Source of the DNA: Okeania sp.
GTDB lineage: Bacteria > Cyanobacteriota > Cyanobacteriia > Cyanobacteriales > Microcoleaceae
Reading direction: 5' to 3'
NCBI RefSeq assembly: GCF_035285525.1
Contig: NZ_JAYKGW010000201.1
Coordinates: 1-12,770 of the forward strand
Length of the DNA: 12,770 bases
Shown here: positions 4,994-12,770 of the stretch, piece by piece
Position numbering within the stretch: position 1 is the first letter of the stretch
How the letters are laid out: each line of letters starts with the position of its first letter
The notes under the pieces: model-generated
The model's database searches: none
What the model was told of the DNA's origin: nothing
Seen by the model: only the letters and a program-made list of their open reading frames with translations
Translations under genes and position numbers: made by a program

Positions 4994-5016
4994 AGTTATC
5001 AGTTATCAGTTATCAG
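4994..5016. repeat. STRR-type heptamer tract (AGTTATC x3 plus a partial copy)
   Basis: The tract is agttatc agttatc agttatc ag. The same heptamer recurs at 5779-5791, 7121-7133 and 9028-9037. Confidence 0.85.
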
Positions 5017-5490
5017 CTTTTTTAGTTTTTATGTTTGAACATTAGATAAAGTTATGATTTTGAAATTTTGGCTTTAATATTTTAAATTTTACTACTTTTG
5101 CGTGACTGTTAAATGGGGAAATTTTTTTGGGTTGGTTAACGAGGTTTCAAGATTTTTAGCGCTTTTTTTTGATTTTGTGATATTATAGACATAGAGTATA
5201 ATTGGAGCCTTTTATTTCTTAATTTAGTTTTATAACTGTTATTTCTTATTATGCTGTTGTTTTGGTCTGTTTTTGTCTGAATTTGCTTTGCTTAAAATGA
5301 CTTTTTTTATCTGTCCGTTTTTTGCTGTTTTGACAAAGTGTTGATTTTGTGATAGCAAAGCAGGTTTTTTCGTTTTTTTTAATTGTATTTTGTTGAATAA
5401 TTAGTCTAGAGGATGGGCAAACAAAAACCAATAATTTTATCATATCACAGTTGGCTTGAGGATGCAACCCTAATTCTCTGATCGGCGCGA
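5005..5490 (+). other. Conserved T-rich non-coding segment, copy A (paralogous to 9027-9514); it precedes tandem array A
   Basis: It aligns colinearly by eye with 9027-9514 at roughly four fifths identity. Shared blocks are ggttaacgaggtttcaa.atttttagcgcttttttt, aaaatgacttttttt, tgttttgacaaagtgtt.gttttgtgatag, ttgaataattagtctag and aggatgcaaccctaattctct.atcggcgcga. No ORF is conserved between the copies. Confidence 0.8.
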
Positions 5491-5718
5491 TTTTTTTTGG
5501 GGAGTGCTTCAGAGAATGAAAATTTTGAGTAATTAGGGAAGGTTTGATAATCAAGCGATCGCTACTTTATTTCCAGGGGTGCTTCAGAGAATGAAAATTT
5601 TGAGTAATTAGGGAAGGTTTGATGGTAGAGGAAATTTCGACTTTTCCTGAGTGAGGGTGCTTCAAAGAATGAAAATTTTGAGTAATTAGGGAAGGTTTGA
5701 TAATCAAGCGATCGCTAC
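5491..5718 (+). repeat. Modular tandem array A (3 units of 75-77 bp)
   Basis: The units are 5491-5565, 5566-5641 and 5642-5718. Each has a T-run, then the core GG(G)TGCTTCA(G/A)AGAATGAAAATTTTGAGTAATTAGGGAAGGTTTGAT. The tail is either aatcaagcgatcgctac (HIP1 module; units 1 and 3) or ggtagaggaaatttcgac (unit 2). Confidence 0.9.
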
Positions 5719-6182: not shown

Positions 6183-6340
6183 AATTTTCTGTACAACCAA
6201 AACTTTATCAAAATAATGTGGTTCTAAAACCCCATCTTGATTGTACAGCATTCCCTATGGGAATCGGCGCAATATTTTTGGAGTCTTGTAAAATCCCCCT
6301 TACAAAAATCACTTCTGTGTGTAGAGCATGAGCTAGGAAC

Positions 6341-6377
6341 TTCTGACTTCTGACTTCTGACTTCTAACTTCTAACTT
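6341..6377. repeat. STRR-type heptamer tract (TTCTGAC x3, TTCTAAC x2)
   Basis: The tract reads ttctgac ttctgac ttctgac ttctaac ttctaac ttc directly. Confidence 0.9.
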
Positions 6378-6504
6378 CGTTAAAGGGAGCGAATAACTAT
6401 TCGTTCCCTATTAATCTCAAAAAGTTACTATTTTGGACAATAGTTAGACAAAAAAATTACTCTTCTATTCCCCAACTCCTGAAAATGGTTCAAAAAATTA
6501 AAAT

Positions 6505-6751: not shown

Positions 6752-7325
6752 TAACAATTTTACCCCTGAAAATAATGTAAATCAAATAAAATAGAATTAC
6801 ATAAGGCTTACTGATTAAATATAAAAGCGTTGATAAATAAATATTTTAGCCTTTTGATTTATGTCGAAAGTAGTGCCTAACTTTTGGCTGTTGTTGTCTC
6901 AAAATAATAAATTTTTGACCTTAACTATCAGAAAATCTGGCCGTGACAAATAGTTTAAACTGTTCCCTCTTCCCTTCTTTTACTAACCGACTTATTCAGC
7001 AAATCCTAAGTATTTATTTAAGAGAAATATGGAGTTAGTAATATAAAAAATTTTGGTAACTTTTTGCTATTAGTAAAATCTCCTACTAGGACTTAAAATC
7101 AAACAAATTCTTTTTAAGTTATCAGTTATTTAGGAACTCCGTATCAAGCTGGTATTTTCAAACTTGAAACTTCCTTTTTTATACTATAGAAAGGAAAAAG
7201 TTGAGACCTTATTGCTACGAAAAAATTTTAGTAGTTATACAGAAGTAGTTTGGCTAACTAATATAACTTCTTACTTGGAGAAATATTTCGACTAAACCTA
7301 CTACTTGTTTATCATTACTAAAATA

Positions 7326-7904
7326 CTATGAATCAACTAATAATCCATAGGGAAGGGGATAGCTTTCTTCATCGTCACCGGTTTCAAACCAGTAGTGCAT
7401 ATGAGCTTCGACAAACTCCTCACGACTAATAGAACCTGACTTATCTGAATCAATACTATCAAAAGCTTGGTTCGCTTGTTCCGATTGCTCTACTCCAGTA
7501 TATATTGCTAGATACTTTCGGTACTCTTCACGAGATATTTCTCCAGAATGATCCGTGTCAATGATATCGAAAAAAATCTCGTTTTTATGTCTACCTGCTT
7601 GAAGTACTTCATCTGATGCTTCAGCCACAGTCTTTGCAACTTTAGTGATTAATTCTTCTTCAGTAATTTGAGTATTATCATCAACTGGTTCTCCTCCAGC
7701 TATAAAATGCTGAAACAGAGAATGACACATTTCGCGAATTTTTTCGTTCTTTGATGAATCAGTTTGCAGTCTAATTAAACGATTGGCAATTTCTTCAAAG
7801 TCGGAGAGGGTTAAAACCTCATTTTTATCGACGTCCATAAGTTTGAAGTAGGTCTTCATTTTAGCACGCCAAATACTTGATGATATAAACTTTTCAGGAG
7901 ACAT
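7326..7904 (-). CDS. EF-hand calcium-binding protein of the sarcoplasmic-calcium-binding-protein (SCP)/calerythrin type
   Basis: 192-aa ORF. The EF loops are DVDKNEVLTLSDFE (atypical, E at the Gly position), DTDHSGEISREEYRKY and DSDKSGSISREEFVEA. The N-terminal IWRAKMKTYFKLMDVDKNEVLTLSDFEEIANRL and the C-terminal WFETGDDEESYPLPYGLLV resemble, from memory, invertebrate SCP (..W.QKMKTYFNRIDFDKDG.I...DFE.MAERF ... FWGPLV). Confidence 0.85.
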   Translation of the reverse strand: MSPEKFISSSIWRAKMKTYFKLMDVDKNEVLTLSDFEEIANRLIRLQTDSSKNEKIREMCHSLFQHFIAGGEPVDDNTQITEEELITKVAKTVAEASDEVLQAGRHKNEIFFDIIDTDHSGEISREEYRKYLAIYTGVEQSEQANQAFDSIDSDKSGSISREEFVEAHMHYWFETGDDEESYPLPYGLLVDS

Positions 7905-8031
7905 TTTTATTGAAGAATAAGAAAACTACATCAACTAACTTCTTAATATCATCATAGCCTCAGAAATTTTGGATTATGTAATAAAAATTAATATTTATTG
8001 TCAGTATTCAGTAGTCAGCTATAAGCCAGGC

Positions 8032-8043
8032 TCCTCCGGAGGA
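8032..8043. promoter_or_regulatory. 12-bp perfect palindrome TCCTCCGGAGGA containing the TCCGGA (DIF1-like) hexamer, ~130 bp upstream of the EF-hand gene
   Basis: The palindrome is read directly, with TCCGGA at 8035-8040. No convincing -10 element was found at the canonical spacing, so the regulatory role is speculative. Confidence 0.2.
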
Positions 8044-8229
8044 ACTGCTTTAACAGTTATTGCTTCTAGTTTTTGATAGAAGCTTATATTATTTAGAAAT
8101 TTTATTTTAATATAAAAGCTAGTTTTCAAGTCTATATATATTAGTTTAAATATGATCTTTAAGCTTGAGGTTTCTTTTGCTAATAGCTGAGGTGCTAATA
8201 GCTGAATGCTTATAATACCTCTATAATTT

Positions 8230-9018
8230 TCACCTTGTCATAGTAGAAATAGTTTTTCCTAGTGACATTAATGTTCGTTTAAAGTTATCTGCACGACTCC
8301 GAAAATCATCACCTTTTCCTAAATCAAATGCCATTCCTTTGACTCCAGATAATAATTTTAAATAAACTTTACTTTCAGTGTCTTGAGTAGCAATAACTAA
8401 ATAAAATTGGTCTATTCCTACAGTTTGAATTTCTCTTACTACTTCCTCAATATTTTGAGTTTCTTGATCGGGAATATGTGGAGGAGCGTCTGTGATTAAA
8501 ACAATAACTTTATTACTGTCTGAATCAAAAGGTTGACGTAATGCAAACATCACTGCATCTAAACTACTTTCTGGTGCATCTCCTCCTCCATAAGCTTTTA
8601 GTTTAGATACTTCTTGACGAAAAAGATTGGGATTATTTGTAAATACTTCGCCATTAATTTTTAACACTCTATGTTCTTCATTAATTAGGCGATCACGAAA
8701 TTCTATTAAACCAACTCTAACTCTGACTCCATCTTTTTCTATAGTATCGGCAAATTCCATAATTGTTTCTTTTATGGCATTAATTTCACCCTCCATACTG
8801 CCAGTACAATCTAACACAAACATAATATCTGCTTGGCGTTTGGCTAAAATTTCTGCTGTTAGTTTTAGGGCTTCAACAAGTTCTTCTGGCGAATGACTTT
8901 TTATAGTTGGTTTTGATCTTGATGTTGTTTTTGGTTTTGTTTCTAATTCTGTACCGCATTGTTGACAGGATTTAGCGGTATCTAAATTTGAAGTTCCGCA
9001 ATTAAGGCAAGTTTTCAT
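8230..9018 (-). CDS. Zinc-ribbon plus von Willebrand factor type A (vWA) domain protein
   Basis: 262-aa ORF. The N-terminal zinc ribbon is CLNCG-x10-CQQCG. After a low-complexity linker, the vWA domain has the MIDAS motif DCTGSM (DxTGS) and a downstream VIVLITDAPPH strand. Confidence 0.88.
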   Translation of the reverse strand: MKTCLNCGTSNLDTAKSCQQCGTELETKPKTTSRSKPTIKSHSPEELVEALKLTAEILAKRQADIMFVLDCTGSMEGEINAIKETIMEFADTIEKDGVRVRVGLIEFRDRLINEEHRVLKINGEVFTNNPNLFRQEVSKLKAYGGGDAPESSLDAVMFALRQPFDSDSNKVIVLITDAPPHIPDQETQNIEEVVREIQTVGIDQFYLVIATQDTESKVYLKLLSGVKGMAFDLGKGDDFRSRADNFKRTLMSLGKTISTMTR

Positions 9019-9026
9019 TTCAGCGA

Positions 9027-9514
9027 TCAGTTATCAGCTTCTTTAGTTTTCATGTTTGAAAATTAGATAAAGTTATAGTTTTAAAATTTTGGTTTTAATA
9101 TTTTAAACTTTACCATTTTTGAGTGACTTTTCAATAGGGAAATTTTTTTGGTTTGGTTAACGAGGTTTCAATATTTTTAGCGCTTTTTTTCAATTTTGTG
9201 ATATCGTATACTTATGATATTCTTGGAGCATTTTATGTCTTGATTTAGTTTTATACCTGTTAATTCCTATTATGCCGTTATGTTGGGTTATTTTGTTCTA
9301 AATTGTCTTTGCTCAAAATGACTTTTTTTCTCTGCGCGTTTTTTTCTGTTTTGACAAAGTGTTAGTTTTGTGATAGTAGGGCATATTTTTTGTTTTTTTG
9401 GGAATTAGATTTGCATTGAATAATTAGTCTAGTTTATGAACGAGTAACACCAAGTGTTTTTATTCTACCACAGGTGCTTTCAGGATGCAACCCTAATTCT
9501 CTTATCGGCGCGAC
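9027..9514 (+). other. Conserved T-rich non-coding segment, copy B (paralogous to 5005-5490); it starts 9 bp from the vWA start codon
   Basis: It is colinear with copy A (see 5005-5490). The vWA gene (ATG at 9018, minus strand) has no upstream sequence other than this segment. Confidence 0.8.
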
Positions 9515-10032
9515 TTTTTTCAGGGGTGCTTCAGAGAATGATTGGGGGGGTAGTCAGGGAAGGTTTGATTGTCAGGCGATCGCTACTTTTTTTCAGGGGT
9601 GCTTCAGAGAATGATTGGGGGGTAGTCAGGGAAGGTTTGATTGTCAGGCGATCGCTACTTTTTTTCAGGGGTGCTTCAGAGAATGATTGGGGGGGGGTAG
9701 TCAGGGAAGGTTTGATTGTCAGGCGATCGCTACTTTTTTTCAGGGGTGCTTCAGAGAATGATTGGGGGGTAGTCAGGGAAGGTTTGATGGAAAAGGAAAT
9801 TTCGACTTTTTTCAGGGGTGCTTCAGAGAATGAAAATTTTCAGTAGTTAGGGAAGGCTTGATTGTCAGGCGATCGCTACTTTTTTTTTCAGGGGTGCTTC
9901 AGAGAATGATTGGGGGGTAGTCAAGGAAGGTTTGATGGAAAAGGAAATTTCGACTTTTTTTCAGGGGTGCTTCAGAGAATGATTTGGGGGGGGAGTAGTC
10001 AAGGAAGGTTTGATGGAAAAGGAAATTTCGAC
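9515..10032 (+). repeat. Modular tandem array B (7 units of 72-78 bp)
   Basis: Unit ends are at 9586, 9658, 9733, 9806, 9879, 9954 and 10032. The core is CAGGGGTGCTTCAGAGAATGATTGGGGGGTAGTCAGGGAAGGTTTGAT. Unit 5 keeps the array-A-like GAAAATTTTCAGTAGTTAGGG version. Tails alternate between tgtcaggcgatcgctac (units 1, 2, 3, 5) and ggaaaaggaaatttcgac (units 4, 6, 7). The G-run length differs between units (6, 7 and 9 G). Confidence 0.92.
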
Positions 10033-10191
10033 TTTTTCTTGGGGAGCAGCCAGAATCCAGAATCCAGGAGGAAGAGGAATCAGAATCACAGAAGAGCTAG
10101 CCAAAAAAATATTCCCTTAATTTTCTCCCATATCTTGCCCAAAATCCTAGAATGCATGATTTTTCGGGAACCGTACCAGAATTACCTAAAA

Positions 10192-10214
10192 GCTGGTACT
10201 CTATTAGTACCTGC
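10192..10214 (-). terminator. Candidate intrinsic terminator of the kinase-FGE gene
   Basis: The minus-strand RNA is gcaGGUACUaauagAGUACCagc followed by UUUU. The stem is 6 bp plus 2 bp with one mismatch, ~52 nt after the stop codon. The stem is AU-rich and short, so the call is weak. Confidence 0.35.
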
Positions 10215-10265
10215 AAAAGCTGAAACCAATTCTTAAACAACTGACAACTAAAAAAGACTAATTGA

Positions 10266-12368
10266 CTAGAAACGGACAGGTAAGACGACACGAAAACCCC
10301 TATTGATGCTGAACCGATCCCCACTGCTACAACTACGCCTGGCACATCGACAATCCCTAGAATAGTTGACCCAACTACCACCACGGATAACTCTGTGCAG
10401 TCTATATTTACTTTGTCCCCAAATTTCCCAAGCAGTTCCATCCGTAGGCGCTCCATTATAATTATTGTGCCAAAGATCCTGACACCATTCCCAGACATTC
10501 CCGTGCATATCATATAAACCAAAAGCATTGGGTGGAAAACGTCCCAGTGCTGTTGTTTGTTTTAGAAATTTACCTTGAGGAGCGTTACCATAAGGATAGT
10601 TACCGTCGTAGTTAACCAACTCAGGCGTTATAGTTTCTCCAAAATAAAAAGATGTAGTCGTCCCTGCACGACAAGCATATTCCCACTGACTTTCGCTAGG
10701 CAACCTGTAAATTTTCCCAGTTTTCTTGCGTAGCTTTTTACGAAAGTTTGTAGCTTCATCCCAACTCACACTTTCCACTGGGCGACTTCCTCCTTTAAAT
10801 CGAGAAGGATTATTTCCCATAATGGCTTGGTACTGGTTTTGAGTAATAGGATATTTGCTGATAAAGAAAGGTTGGAGAGTAACTTTATGTTGCAGATTTT
10901 CATCAGACTCTCTTTCAAACTCATCTTTTGGAGAGCCCATAAGAAAATTTCCCCCAGGAATATAAACCATTTCCAATACCACCTTCTCATCTAAATATTC
11001 TCTAAAAAATTCTGCTTCCTGGCGACGGCGACTAATTTCTTGTCCTTGGGAGTTGACCTTTATTACCTCAAAGCTAAATTTATCCGGTATTACTCCTTTA
11101 GGAAAGGGAGATTTTTTTTCAGAAGTCTCTTTTGGCATCCTCTCTTTAGGAGGTAAAGGTAACGGCTTTAGTGGTTTTGTGGGAAAGGGAGATGTTTCTT
11201 CTAGCTTCTCACTTCTATTTCCCAAGTCTTTCAGAAAATTTATAAATTGCGATATTTTTGTTTCTGACTCCTGAATGCTGGTTTCTGACTCCTGAATGTT
11301 GGTTTCTGACTCCTGAATGTTAGTTTCTGACTCCTGAATGTTAGTTTCTAACTCCTGAATGCTGGTTTCTAACTCCTGAATGTTGGTTTCTAACTCCTCA
11401 CTTCTGACTTTTGACTTTTGACTTTTGAATTGTATCTTCCACCATTCCTGAATATTTCCAGGACGACCTTCCTGCTCAAAAACCAAAGCCGACATTACCA
11501 ACTCTTGCCAAGGAGACTCTAAATCTTCTGGTTGCCAACCTTTTTGTTTTGATAAACGTTGCAAAGCATTAGGAGGTAACTGCCCAGTCAACATTTCATA
11601 AACCATCATCCCCACTTCAAAAATATCGCTCTCTACTCCCACTTCTCCTCCCCCAATAACTTCTGGTGCGGCATAAGCTTCCGTAAAAGTCCGAGTACTA
11701 GAAGTACTCATAGAAGTTCCGAAGGTTTGTTTTGCCGAACCAAAGTCGATCAATACTAACCGCCCTTCTGGGGTAAGTAAGATATTGTCGGGTTTTATAT
11801 CCAAGTGAAAAATTCCTTGTTGATGTACTGCGGATAATGCTAAGACGAGAGGAGAGATTATTTCTGCGATTTTCTCAGGGGAAAATTTTTTCTGAGGTTG
11901 AGAGTCTAATTCTGTTCTGAGAGTTTTTCCCGTGACTAACTCCATGACTAGATAGGCCGTATCATTTTCCTCAAATAAATCTTTTACTCTTACCACATGA
12001 GGGTGATCGAGTTTTGCTAATATTTGTCCTTCCCGGAGAAACCTTTGCAAACCCCGTTGAAATATTTCCTGTTGATTTTTGGGGATGGTAAAACCGCCAG
12101 TGGTAGGGTGGCGGAAAGCGTGGTTTTGGGGATAATATTCTTTGATGGCGACTGTTTTTTGTAATGATTTATGATACCCCTGATAAGTTACGCCAAACCC
12201 TCCTCGACCCAGGGCGTAGTTTATTTGGTACTTATTGCCATGAAGTTTCCTACCTGATGCAAGTAGATCGCGGGTGAGTGATGGTAGGTATGCGCCACAG
12301 TTGGGGCATAGTTTTGTGTTTAGTGGAAGACCGTCAGTATAGCAACCTGAGTTTAAGCAACGCATCAT
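10266..12368 (-). CDS. Multidomain protein: N-terminal zinc ribbon, Ser/Thr protein kinase, heptad-repeat/Pro-rich linker, and a C-terminal FGE/SUMF1-type (formylglycine-generating enzyme fold, C-type-lectin-like) domain
   Basis: 700-aa ORF. The zinc ribbon is C-x4-C-x11-C-x2-C at the N-terminus. Kinase motifs are GRGGFGVTY, VAIKEY, HLDIKPDNILL, DFGSAK and APE. The linker is (ETNIQEL/S)n followed by PFPTKPLKPLPLPPK. The FGE domain has YIPGGNFLMGSP, RLPSESQWEYACRAG, GLYDMHGNVWEWCQD and RGGSW...GFRVV. Confidence 0.92.
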   Translation of the reverse strand: MMRCLNSGCYTDGLPLNTKLCPNCGAYLPSLTRDLLASGRKLHGNKYQINYALGRGGFGVTYQGYHKSLQKTVAIKEYYPQNHAFRHPTTGGFTIPKNQQEIFQRGLQRFLREGQILAKLDHPHVVRVKDLFEENDTAYLVMELVTGKTLRTELDSQPQKKFSPEKIAEIISPLVLALSAVHQQGIFHLDIKPDNILLTPEGRLVLIDFGSAKQTFGTSMSTSSTRTFTEAYAAPEVIGGGEVGVESDIFEVGMMVYEMLTGQLPPNALQRLSKQKGWQPEDLESPWQELVMSALVFEQEGRPGNIQEWWKIQFKSQKSKVRSEELETNIQELETSIQELETNIQESETNIQESETNIQESETSIQESETKISQFINFLKDLGNRSEKLEETSPFPTKPLKPLPLPPKERMPKETSEKKSPFPKGVIPDKFSFEVIKVNSQGQEISRRRQEAEFFREYLDEKVVLEMVYIPGGNFLMGSPKDEFERESDENLQHKVTLQPFFISKYPITQNQYQAIMGNNPSRFKGGSRPVESVSWDEATNFRKKLRKKTGKIYRLPSESQWEYACRAGTTTSFYFGETITPELVNYDGNYPYGNAPQGKFLKQTTALGRFPPNAFGLYDMHGNVWEWCQDLWHNNYNGAPTDGTAWEIWGQSKYRLHRVIRGGSWVNYSRDCRCARRSCSSGDRFSINRGFRVVLPVRF
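11260..11400 (-). repeat. In-frame 21-bp tandem repeat (6 full plus 1 partial copy) inside the kinase-FGE gene
   Basis: GTTTCTGACTCCTGAATG(C/T)T(G/A) recurs every 21 bp from 11260, and the last three copies have GTTTCTAAC. It encodes ELETNIQ/ESETNIQ heptads. It is followed by the heptamers cttctga cttttga cttttga cttttga at 11401-11428. Confidence 0.95.
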
Positions 12369-12454
12369 TTTCAGTAAGGATGAGGGAAGAAGGAAGAAGT
12401 TAAAAGATTTTCTGCAATTATACCGTGGCTGAGTTTTCTTTCAGAAGTTAAAAG

Positions 12455-12770
12455 TTGTCTATTTACCTGAGAATTTTTCATTTTCTGAAGCACCCGAATT
12501 TAAGAAGTGGTTGCCTGAGCGATCGCCTCCTTGTCTATATTACCTGAGAATTTTTCATTTTCTGAAGCACCCGAAATTGAGAAGTAGTGTTTTGACTCGG
12601 AAAAATCCTTCTATTTACCTGAGAATTTTTCATTTTCTGAAGCACCCGAATTTAAGAAGTGGTTGCCTGAGCGATCGCCTCCTTGTCTATATTACCTGAG
12701 AATTTTTCATTCTGTGAAGCACCCGAAATTGAGAAGTAGTGTTTTGACTCGGAAAAATCCTTCTATTTAC
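12455..12770 (-). repeat. Modular tandem array C (at least 4 units; inverted relative to arrays A/B; truncated by the window end)
   Basis: The reverse complement of the core is CGGGTGCTTCAGAAAATGAAAAATTCTCAGGTAA, matching the array A/B core GGTGCTTCAGARAATGAAAA. Tails alternate between a HIP1 module (cctgagcgatcgcctcc) and ttttgactcggaaaaatcc. The 152-bp double units 12459-12610 and 12611-12762 differ at only 2 positions. Confidence 0.9.

Follow-up and report, generated by a model that had tools for sequence, protein, structure and literature searches.

Two zinc-ribbon genes of an Okeania contig, encoding a vWA protein and a kinase-FGE protein, as probable outer members of a conserved Ser/Thr phospho-signalling cassette

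The two genes and their products

The 12,770-bp contig NZ_JAYKGW010000201.1 of Okeania sp., a marine filamentous cyanobacterium, was analysed over its whole length (the window). It carries two genes whose products both begin with a four-cysteine (Cys4) zinc ribbon (ZnR). In one product the ribbon is followed by a von Willebrand factor A (vWA) domain, and in the other by a Ser/Thr kinase domain, a heptad linker and a C-terminal FGE-sulfatase (FGE) domain. The preliminary description of this DNA had presented them as co-oriented partners in a candidate sensing or conflict module, and their coordinates, strand and domains were all confirmed by open reading frames (ORFs) and Pfam. They probably form the two ends of a Ser/Thr phospho-signalling cassette that other genomes keep with its genes in one orientation; both of its middle genes are absent here. 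The core of the cassette comprises a ZnR-kinase with a variable C-terminal head, a PP2C phosphatase, a Ser/Thr kinase fused to an FHA domain (STK-FHA) and the ZnR-vWA protein. The two genes and their parts are as follows.

8230-9018, minus strand: ZnR-vWA gene, 262 amino acids (aa), intact (ORF and Pfam)
8233-8304, minus strand: conserved C-terminal helix and tail of the vWA protein (alignment, AlphaFold model)
8323-8835, minus strand: vWA domain (Pfam)
8944-9018, minus strand: N-terminal Cys4 zinc ribbon of the vWA protein, MKTCLNCGTSNLDTAKSCQQCGTEL (Pfam, profile comparison)
10266-12368, minus strand: ZnR-Ser/Thr kinase-heptad linker-FGE gene (kinase-FGE), 700 aa (ORF and Pfam)
10284-10973, minus strand: FGE-sulfatase / C-type-lectin-fold domain (Pfam)
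10299-10370, minus strand: 24-codon hypervariable segment, V667-R690 (sequence comparison)
11260-11398, minus strand: in-frame 21-nt tandem repeat in the linker, 6.6 copies
11439-12230, minus strand: Hanks-type kinase domain (Pfam)
12276-12368, minus strand: N-terminal Cys4 zinc ribbon and conserved LPSL motif of the kinase

The vWA protein consists of a zinc ribbon (Zn_Ribbon_1, residues 4-25, E 2e-6; cysteines C4, C7, C18 and C21) and a vWA domain (VWA/VWA_4, residues 64-231, E 1e-15) alone, with no effector or FGE fusion. All 72 columns that are invariant among 25 family members are retained in the window protein, and residues of the metal-ion-dependent adhesion site (MIDAS) type, D70-x-T72-x-S74 and T176-D177, are invariant within the family. 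The C-terminal tail, LGKTISxxTR, is strikingly conserved (L253, G254, K255, T256, I257, S258 and T261 are invariant) and is a candidate phospho-acceptor and FHA-docking site. An AlphaFold model (predicted local distance difference test score 77) consists of the ribbon, a disordered linker, a single vWA domain and a long C-terminal helix. A fold search with this model gave generic vWA folds, the best 50 being integrin beta-I, TFIIH p44, CMG2 vWA and SpaC pilus adhesin, and did not separate TerY-like from ArnB-like proteins; a sequence search against PDB gave a weak match to a collagen VI vWA domain alone. The family is small: a search of 1.84 billion proteins gave only 98 cluster representatives at E<=1e-30, of which about 20 among the matches listed align along the entire ZnR-vWA length.

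Distant vWA relatives without a zinc ribbon, at 35-45% identity, are found in Microcystis, Sphaerospermopsis and others (loci L041-L045 and L054) and in Planctomycetota (L046-L074). In the cyanobacterial ones a kinase gene lies 6-8 kb downstream, and in those of Planctomycetota vWA genes often stand in tandem.

In the kinase protein, Pfam places Pkinase at residues 47-269 (E 7e-47) and FGE-sulfatase at 466-695 (E 2e-54), and the true start is likely Met2, at 12365. The N-terminal Cys4 motif (C4, C9, C21, C24) is invariant across 22 relatives. The window kinase has the residues of an active Hanks-type Ser/Thr kinase (VAIK Lys, catalytic-loop Asp and Asn, DFG and APE); K76, D190, N195, D208-F209-G210 and E236 (of APE) are invariant in 37 family members including it. 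Its catalytic loop reads H-L-D, which makes it a non-RD (without Arg-Asp) kinase, a feature kept in at least 90% of the 37 members. Non-RD kinases are typical of eukaryotic innate-immune receptor kinases. In relatives, the partner STK-FHA belongs to the RD kinases and has HRD, DFG, APE and FHA motifs (L081, 12755-13951), and the PP2C has the metal-binding motifs, DGMGGH among them.

The 21-nt repeat of the linker (94% matches) encodes ELETNIQ and ESETNIQ heptads. Linker length is very different among kinase-FGE orthologues, in proteins of 700, 617 and 538 aa, and this suggests repeat-driven length variation. Inspection of the two window proteins revealed no obvious transmembrane segment in either of them, so the system is probably cytosolic.

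Similarity of the two zinc ribbons

Profiles were built from the N-termini of 22 kinases and 22 vWA proteins of related loci. The consensus of the kinase ribbon is MRCLNC-x13-CPxCGVHLPSLxRDVL and that of the vWA ribbon MKxCxxCGASNxDxAKFCxECG, with four cysteines invariant in each family. The profiles align over 28 columns (HHalign probability 95.4%, E 1.7e-8), in agreement with the preliminary description, which had seen a similar Cys4 ribbon on both proteins. Judged from these alignments the ribbons are of the same kind, in a motif too short to prove common descent. A further match of the vWA ribbon is to positions 1-40 of the NCBIfam model PRK14559 (E 9e-4), a 642-aa 'serine/threonine phosphatase', so that the same ribbon type appears to head PP2C proteins too. 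FraH is a ZnR-FHA protein. The PRK14559 match, together with FraH, hints at an N-terminal ribbon tag common to cyanobacterial phospho-signalling proteins.

A conserved cassette in related genomes

A scan with the vWA alignment, using one genome per species, returned 79 loci (numbered with the prefix L), of which 40 (L001-L040) are close orthologues at 46-81% identity. The orthologous loci come from many cyanobacteria and from Chloroflexota (Anaerolineae, Ca. Chloroploca), Abditibacteriota and Armatimonadota. ORFs were called and clustered in the 40 loci, and linkage counts were limited to loci with enough flanking DNA. Clustering and Pfam yielded five recurrent families only: PP2C (~290 aa), STK-FHA (~400 aa, with the FHA domain C-terminal), ZnR-vWA, ZnR-kinase (in one or two copies) and FHA or FHA-PrsW. 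The commonest order is PP2C, STK-FHA, ZnR-vWA, ZnR-kinase, on a single strand and often with gaps of 0-400 nt.

Of 36 loci, 31 have STK-FHA upstream of the vWA gene; for PP2C the figure is 26 of 34, and for a ZnR-kinase downstream of the vWA gene it is 25 of 36. When either side of the vWA gene is counted, 31 of 39 loci, which represent at least four phyla, have a ZnR-kinase of the same subfamily no more than 5 kb away. The adjacency of vWA and ZnR-kinase genes is thus far above chance, and in all these phyla the cassette can be recognised by its small, distinct vWA family. The preliminary description had proposed a neighbourhood comparison of orthologues of the two genes, with attention to any PP2C or FHA gene nearby. 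Such orthologues are neighbours in most loci, and PP2C and STK-FHA are the two most constant genes beside them; a pair that is never adjacent and bears unrelated ribbons is clearly not what the relatives present.

The C-terminal heads of 37 cassette kinases are FGE (11), TPR (6), WD40 (2) and others. Genes for FHA or FHA-PrsW protease proteins often follow the cassette, and RDD is also a recurrent neighbour; the frequency of FHA-PrsW and RDD neighbours hints at regulated proteolysis or the cell envelope. The flanks are unrelated housekeeping genes that differ between genomes, and no MoxR-type ATPase, VMAP, iSTAND or other effector was recurrent next to the cassette among the 40 loci and the flanking genes sampled. 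Complete sets occur in both arrangements. A metagenome contig from the Joint Genome Institute (L095) has the kinase-first order kinase-FGE, PP2C, STK-FHA, ZnR-vWA, and Symploca (L096) has PP2C, STK-FHA, vWA, kinase-FGE, the commoner order with the kinase last.

The L095 locus follows directly after tig-clpP-clpX, as does the kinase gene of L082. Past a small UPF0175/DUF3368 pair after its vWA gene, L095 also encodes two stand-alone FGE-sulfatase proteins of 373 and 403 aa (16499-18963).

The window shares with these loci the ZnR-vWA orthologue and, 1247 nt away, a co-oriented kinase of the MRCLNC...CPxCG...LPSLxRDVL subfamily. It differs from them at the position immediately upstream of the vWA gene, where PP2C and STK-FHA are absent.

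Repeats and the missing middle genes

The spacer between the two genes (9019-10265, 1247 nt) is filled with repeats. These, and the array on the far side of the kinase gene, are listed below.

9042-9541, no strand: AT-rich 'leader' of ~500 nt, a dispersed repeat
9515-10047, no strand: tandem array of 72-nt units, ~7 copies, with the HIP1 palindrome GCGATCGC
12455-12770 (to contig end), no strand: second tandem array, 77-nt unit, related to the first and inverted

The absence of a PP2C or FHA partner from the window, reported in the preliminary description, was corroborated by tblastn with 86 PP2C, STK-FHA and FHA proteins. No remnant of any of them was found in the window or the spacer, with nothing outside the kinase ORF below E 0.1, and degraded copies of these genes in the spacer are thereby ruled out.

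The same description had proposed that a 1.25-kb insertion of leader and array may have split an ancestral operon, a view that the relatives contradict. In Okeania sp. SIO3I5 (L081), the closest informative relative, an array, kinase-FGE, a second array, a leader, PP2C and STK-FHA follow one another in one orientation up to the contig end. Its kinase-FGE gene has 84% nucleotide identity to that of the window, its leader is 79% identical to 9042-9541, and its second array is homologous to 9515-10047. Since leader and array occupy the same place there, between kinase-FGE and PP2C, they are not a recent insertion between formerly adjacent genes, and L095 has the complete order. What sets the window apart, as judged from these comparisons, is the absence of PP2C and STK-FHA and not the presence of the repeats. 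With the middle genes absent, the leader now abuts the start codon of the vWA gene, ending 24 nt from it, where in relatives it abuts that of PP2C.

The leader belongs to a dispersed repeat family of Okeania and Trichodesmium, ~500 nt long and AT-rich. A second window copy lies at 5020-5523, between mutM and ndhO, with array-like sequence continuing to 5724, and others were found in L002 (212-693 and 1138-1480), L003 (6146-6623) and L081 (10988-11483). In three relatives, two of them Trichodesmium loci, the PP2C start codon directly follows a copy. The two window copies have (CTGATAA)n heptamers at their ends, and a Trichodesmium metagenome-assembled genome (MAG) has a heptamer tract like these in front of its vWA gene. 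Recombination between leader-type repeats is a plausible cause of the gene loss.

The kinase-FGE gene is bracketed by the two arrays, which are inverted relative to each other and have in common the core GGGTGCTTCAGARAATGA and the HIP1 palindrome. Okeania sp. SIO3I5 has its kinase-FGE gene bracketed in the same way (L081, 6360-7298 and 10136-10627). A search of the whole window with Rfam at a permissive threshold gave one sub-threshold chance match and nothing in the spacer or arrays. In a scan of 7200-12770 for sigma-70 promoters and terminators, counts were not above the shuffled expectation. The window thus also cautions that loci of this kind are remodelled by repeat elements in Okeania and Trichodesmium genomes.

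The FGE head and its hypervariable segment

The FGE domain matched PvdO, FGE and TvpA, a Treponema protein diversified by a diversity-generating retroelement (DGR), in a PDB sequence search (TvpA, E 3e-21). Catalytic FGE has two copper-binding cysteines. In an alignment with Thermomonospora curvata FGE (6s07) the position of the first falls on Asn668, a hypervariable codon, and the second is kept, so that one of the two is absent. The FGE head thus appears from its sequence to be a hypervariable binding domain and not an enzyme. The preliminary description had taken such domains for ligand-binding heads, a view upheld by the replaced cysteine and by the DGR-type variable region described below.

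Comparison of the 3' ends of kinase-FGE orthologues revealed a block in which codon positions 1 and 2 vary and position 3 is fixed, and a pattern scan of metagenomes added five further copies of the variable-region scaffold. The variable-region test used eight homologous sequences of a 72-nt block (window 10299-10370) and concerns differences between genomes, not within-population reads. At least three bases occur at 29 of the 72 sites, 25 of them at codon positions 1 or 2, and adenine occupies only 1 of the 28 invariant sites. In the control, the 195 nt upstream of the block, 8 of 195 sites are hypervariable and adenine is found at 36 of 135 invariant sites. An earlier codon-position test with three sequences was marginal (Fisher p 0.06), and the test with eight is clear. 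The bias recurs in Oscillatoria princeps, where the last 27 codons of a paralogous pair of cassette kinases differ at 10, 8 and 5 sites of codon positions 1, 2 and 3, respectively.

The pattern in the eight sequences is the hallmark of mutagenic homing directed at adenines by a DGR. It matches the description of the Trichodesmium erythraeum DGR, which has 12 targets with C-terminal DUF323/FGE domains, mostly kinases, and a variable region of 17 codons with 26 adenines (PMC4143802). The kinase-FGE family has several features of a DGR target: a C-terminal C-type-lectin/FGE fold, variability at codon positions 1 and 2, and conservation of non-A positions. The T. erythraeum orthologue carries the same variable-region scaffold. 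DGR-diversified kinase-CLec/FGE proteins of cyanobacteria (PMC4143802; PMC7517822) have the same N-terminal Ser/Thr kinase and C-terminal FGE domain, and in them, too, the last ~17-24 codons vary at adenine-templated positions. The cassette context of the present kinase is an addition to that picture; in a term search of PMC7517822 and PMC10907252, PP2C, FHA and zinc were unmentioned in connection with DGR-diversified kinases.

Comparison with known systems

The preliminary description had linked the pair to the logic of vWA, kinase and PP2C triads. As to the set of partners this stands, since PP2C and FHA genes accompany the orthologues in relatives, while membership in the two systems that it named, TerY-P and the vWA-based ternary conflict systems, does not. 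TerY-P consists of a TerY vWA protein, a PP2C and a Ser/Thr kinase with a zinc ribbon or OB fold (PMC11090510, citing Anantharaman 2012 and Gao 2020), and as an anti-phage or stress triad in the strict sense the ribbon or OB fold is at the C-terminus of the kinase. The present cassette shares its component logic of stand-alone vWA protein, PP2C, Hanks kinase and ribbon (PMC11090510), a phosphorylation switch is predicted in both, and the window kinase gives matches to generic PADLOC defence-kinase models. The vWA protein is not TerY-like by sequence, however. It and the PP2C have no PADLOC match even at E 10, and a tblastn search with it against 72,556 plasmids gave 30 records at E 1e-3, with none TerY-annotated or enterobacterial among the 25 matches listed. 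Over PADLOC and NCBIfam together, generic kinase and PP2C similarities alone were obtained, nothing exceeded the curated cutoffs, and no NCBIfam model matched the vWA protein above cutoff. The window has neither a TerY-like vWA protein nor an adjacent PP2C. Its ribbon is N-terminal and present on the vWA protein as well, and the kinase ends in FGE instead of a ribbon or OB fold. The sensor kinases of the cassette have interchangeable heads (FGE, TPR, WD40), an extra kinase gene, fused to FHA, is present, and the cassette is flanked by varying housekeeping genes, not by defence islands, and has no link to ter genes or restriction systems. An identification with TerY-P in the strict sense is therefore unlikely.

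A ternary conflict system (vWA-MoxR-VMAP or iSTAND), in which FGE would serve as effector or sensor, is brought to mind by the FGE domain, the DGR linkage and the bias to multicellular cyanobacteria, all hallmarks of such systems (PMC7159879; PMC10907252). In the systems defined by Kaur et al. 2020, a MoxR AAA+ ATPase and VMAP, or an iSTAND NTPase, are encoded with the vWA protein, and the latter is fused to effector or FGE domains. A MoxR AAA+ ATPase, VMAP and iSTAND are absent from the window and are not conserved beside the cassette in the 40 orthologous loci; the vWA protein is short and stand-alone without effector fusions; and FGE sits on the kinase. Such a membership is very improbable. 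The nearest precedent in comparative genomics is an actinobacterial theme of the same study, in which a ZnR-kinase, PP2C and stand-alone vWA protein are encoded next to GAP1-N2 GTPases (PMC7159879). It resembles the cassette in the ribbon-fused active kinase, the adjacent PP2C and the stand-alone vWA protein, and differs in its GTPase link, which is not recurrent here, and in having neither STK-FHA nor an FGE head.

The best experimental precedent, by analogy, would be Sulfolobus ArnA (zinc finger-FHA) and ArnB (vWA), with the kinases ArnC and ArnD and the phosphatase PP2A; phosphorylation of the C-terminal helical region of ArnB governs binding of its FHA partner (PMC6509490). It is the sole experimentally studied module with zinc finger, FHA, MIDAS-intact vWA, Ser/Thr kinases and phosphatase. 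Unlike the cassette it is archaeal, its zinc finger is on the FHA protein, its kinases and phosphatase are encoded elsewhere, and ArnB has extra beta-sandwich and four-helix domains where the window protein has a single vWA domain and one C-terminal helix. The best 50 fold matches held no specific sequence or fold relationship to ArnB, and the resemblance is functional only. The Deinococcus radiodurans operon DRA0331-DRA0334, known from biochemistry (bioRxiv 10.64898/2026.01.23.701218), encodes a vWA protein, a Ser/Thr protein kinase, an FHA protein and FHA-PP2C, that is, the same four domain types in one operon, read as a self-contained phosphorylation control unit. There, FHA is on the phosphatase or alone and not on a kinase, the kinase is transmembrane, and ribbons and FGE are lacking. 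In the type VI secretion system (T6SS), PpkA, PppA and Fha1, namely a vWA-associated Hanks kinase, a PP2C and an FHA protein, form a post-translational on/off switch. The vWA domain of that pathway is periplasmic and fused to the kinase and its output, T6SS assembly, is known, whereas the present locus has no T6SS genes. The cassette is accordingly neither TerY-P proper nor a ternary conflict system. It is a vWA/kinase/PP2C/FHA phospho-signalling unit whose partners are functionally linked, with a function predicted from domain anatomy.

A possible mode of action

The domain anatomy suggests how such a unit could work. The cytosolic non-RD sensor kinase would bind a ligand through its FGE head, the tip of which is of the retroelement-diversified type, and would then phosphorylate Thr or Ser residues of its partners, most likely in the tail or linker of the ZnR-vWA protein and in the RD kinase STK-FHA. 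By analogy with ArnA-ArnB, the FHA domain may dock on phospho-threonine and the vWA MIDAS may bind an acidic residue of a partner or target, so that a complex is assembled or dissolved. PP2C would reset the system, as the known chemistry of its family implies, and the zinc ribbon that the vWA protein and the sensor kinase have in common at their N-termini probably serves to recruit both to a single site.

More tentatively, the cassette could be the downstream pathway of retroelement-diversified sensor kinases, that is, a receptor-kinase pathway of immunity or recognition. In this rather unlikely but consequential case an antibody-like FGE tip would signal to the RD kinase-FHA and the ZnR-vWA adaptor, with PP2C for reset, and the changing ligands might be molecules of phage or of foreign cells, or markers of self within filaments. 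Such a pathway would be analogous to the non-RD pattern-recognition kinases of plants and animals and would be shared by filamentous cyanobacteria, Chloroflexota and allied phyla. DGR rewriting of kinase FGE tips is known in cyanobacteria, and the signalling targets are undescribed in the DGR literature cited here. PP2C, kinase-FHA and ZnR-vWA are testable candidates for the substrate, adaptor and reset enzyme of DGR-diversified kinases.

Function or decay of the window copy

Several observations weigh against this reading of the pair. The ribbon similarity score is dominated by the four cysteines. The close kinase-FGE homologues of L080 and L082 have no cassette upstream, on contigs that end ~400 nt past the gene and leave its informative downstream side unseen. 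Co-transcription of the two window genes across a repeat spacer of 1247 nt is doubtful. No DGR template repeat or reverse transcriptase was found on the 12.8-kb contig, and a metagenome scan with degenerate patterns gave no template and one chance hit. In the window's variable region three changes are private and do not involve adenine. Its 3' flank, the side on which a DGR target has its homing signal (IMH), is conserved in seven relatives but shortened and diverged here, and the region may thus be a relic that is no longer diversified. In T. erythraeum IMS101 (L003, NC_008312 1594276-1615049), of the sister genus, the cassette is eroding: PP2C is down to an 80-aa ORF, the vWA gene is frameshifted and kinase-FGE has in-frame stops, with STK-FHA intact. 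Similarly fragmented vWA genes occur in metagenome contigs from Tara Oceans, Logan and GenBank (L092, L093, L094). The window pair, without PP2C and STK-FHA, may likewise be a decaying remnant.

If so, joint function was lost with PP2C and STK-FHA and the two genes are heading to pseudogenes. This is a real possibility, if a doubtful one. It would fit the absence of the two most constant cassette genes, the erosion in T. erythraeum populations, and the non-adenine drift and truncated 3' flank of the variable region. Homologues of the Okeania STK-FHA were traced to the samples SRR21856589, SRR20596267 and Tara ERZ908270 and none to SRR19514071, the run whose Logan assembly matches the window. 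Yet both window ORFs are full length, with all invariant catalytic, MIDAS and zinc residues intact, PP2C and STK-FHA could sit on another contig of the window's assembly, a fragmented MAG, and other PP2C or FHA proteins could stand in. It is quite unlikely that the middle genes are missing only because the assembler made a false join across the repeated leader. In favour of such a join, the leader is dispersed (at least two copies occur within 12.8 kb), and arrays are where contigs of this clade break. However, the Logan assembly of SRR19514071 is 100% identical to window 9540-6349 (3192 nt, with leader, vWA and EF-hand genes and the leader-vWA junction), which argues against a mis-join there, though the two assemblies may share reads. 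The 500-nt leader exceeds a typical short read, yet on the vWA side it runs on into unique sequence without a break, and only 24 nt separate the junction from the start codon. A purely accidental proximity of two functionally unrelated genes is extremely improbable. A 1.25-kb repeat spacer does lie between them and FGE-tailed kinases are numerous in such genomes (911 homologues, E<1e-30), but the linkage holds in 31 of 39 loci, spread over at least four phyla, and both proteins carry the same type of N-terminal ribbon, which speaks against coincidence. A phospho-signalling cassette that has lost its middle genes in this copy thus remains the probable explanation, and the window itself, as a trimmed copy, is useful as a natural deletion variant.

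Other features of the contig

One further gene lies downstream of the vWA gene in the same orientation.

7326-7904, minus strand: EF-hand protein gene, 192 aa (Pfam)

It does follow the pair, as the preliminary description had noted, and its membership in the unit was ruled out: no counterpart or homologue exists in any of the 79 related loci. Housekeeping genes on the contig are psaE, mutM, ndhO and a MORN protein gene (Pfam). At 2549-2927, two short overlapping ORFs resemble the remnant of a transposase of the IS4/IS5 family (Pfam DUF4096, E 6e-5, under the curated cutoff). Simple repeats are abundant (1-124, 336-381, 1647-1679, 4994-5016 and 6339-6378). The contig opens with a perfect 36-nt tandem repeat, and it also has a (CCACCT)n tract and, between genes, several heptamer tracts that are like short tandemly repeated repetitive (STRR) sequences. 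Both ends of the contig lie inside repeats, which is probably the reason for the breaks in the assembly.

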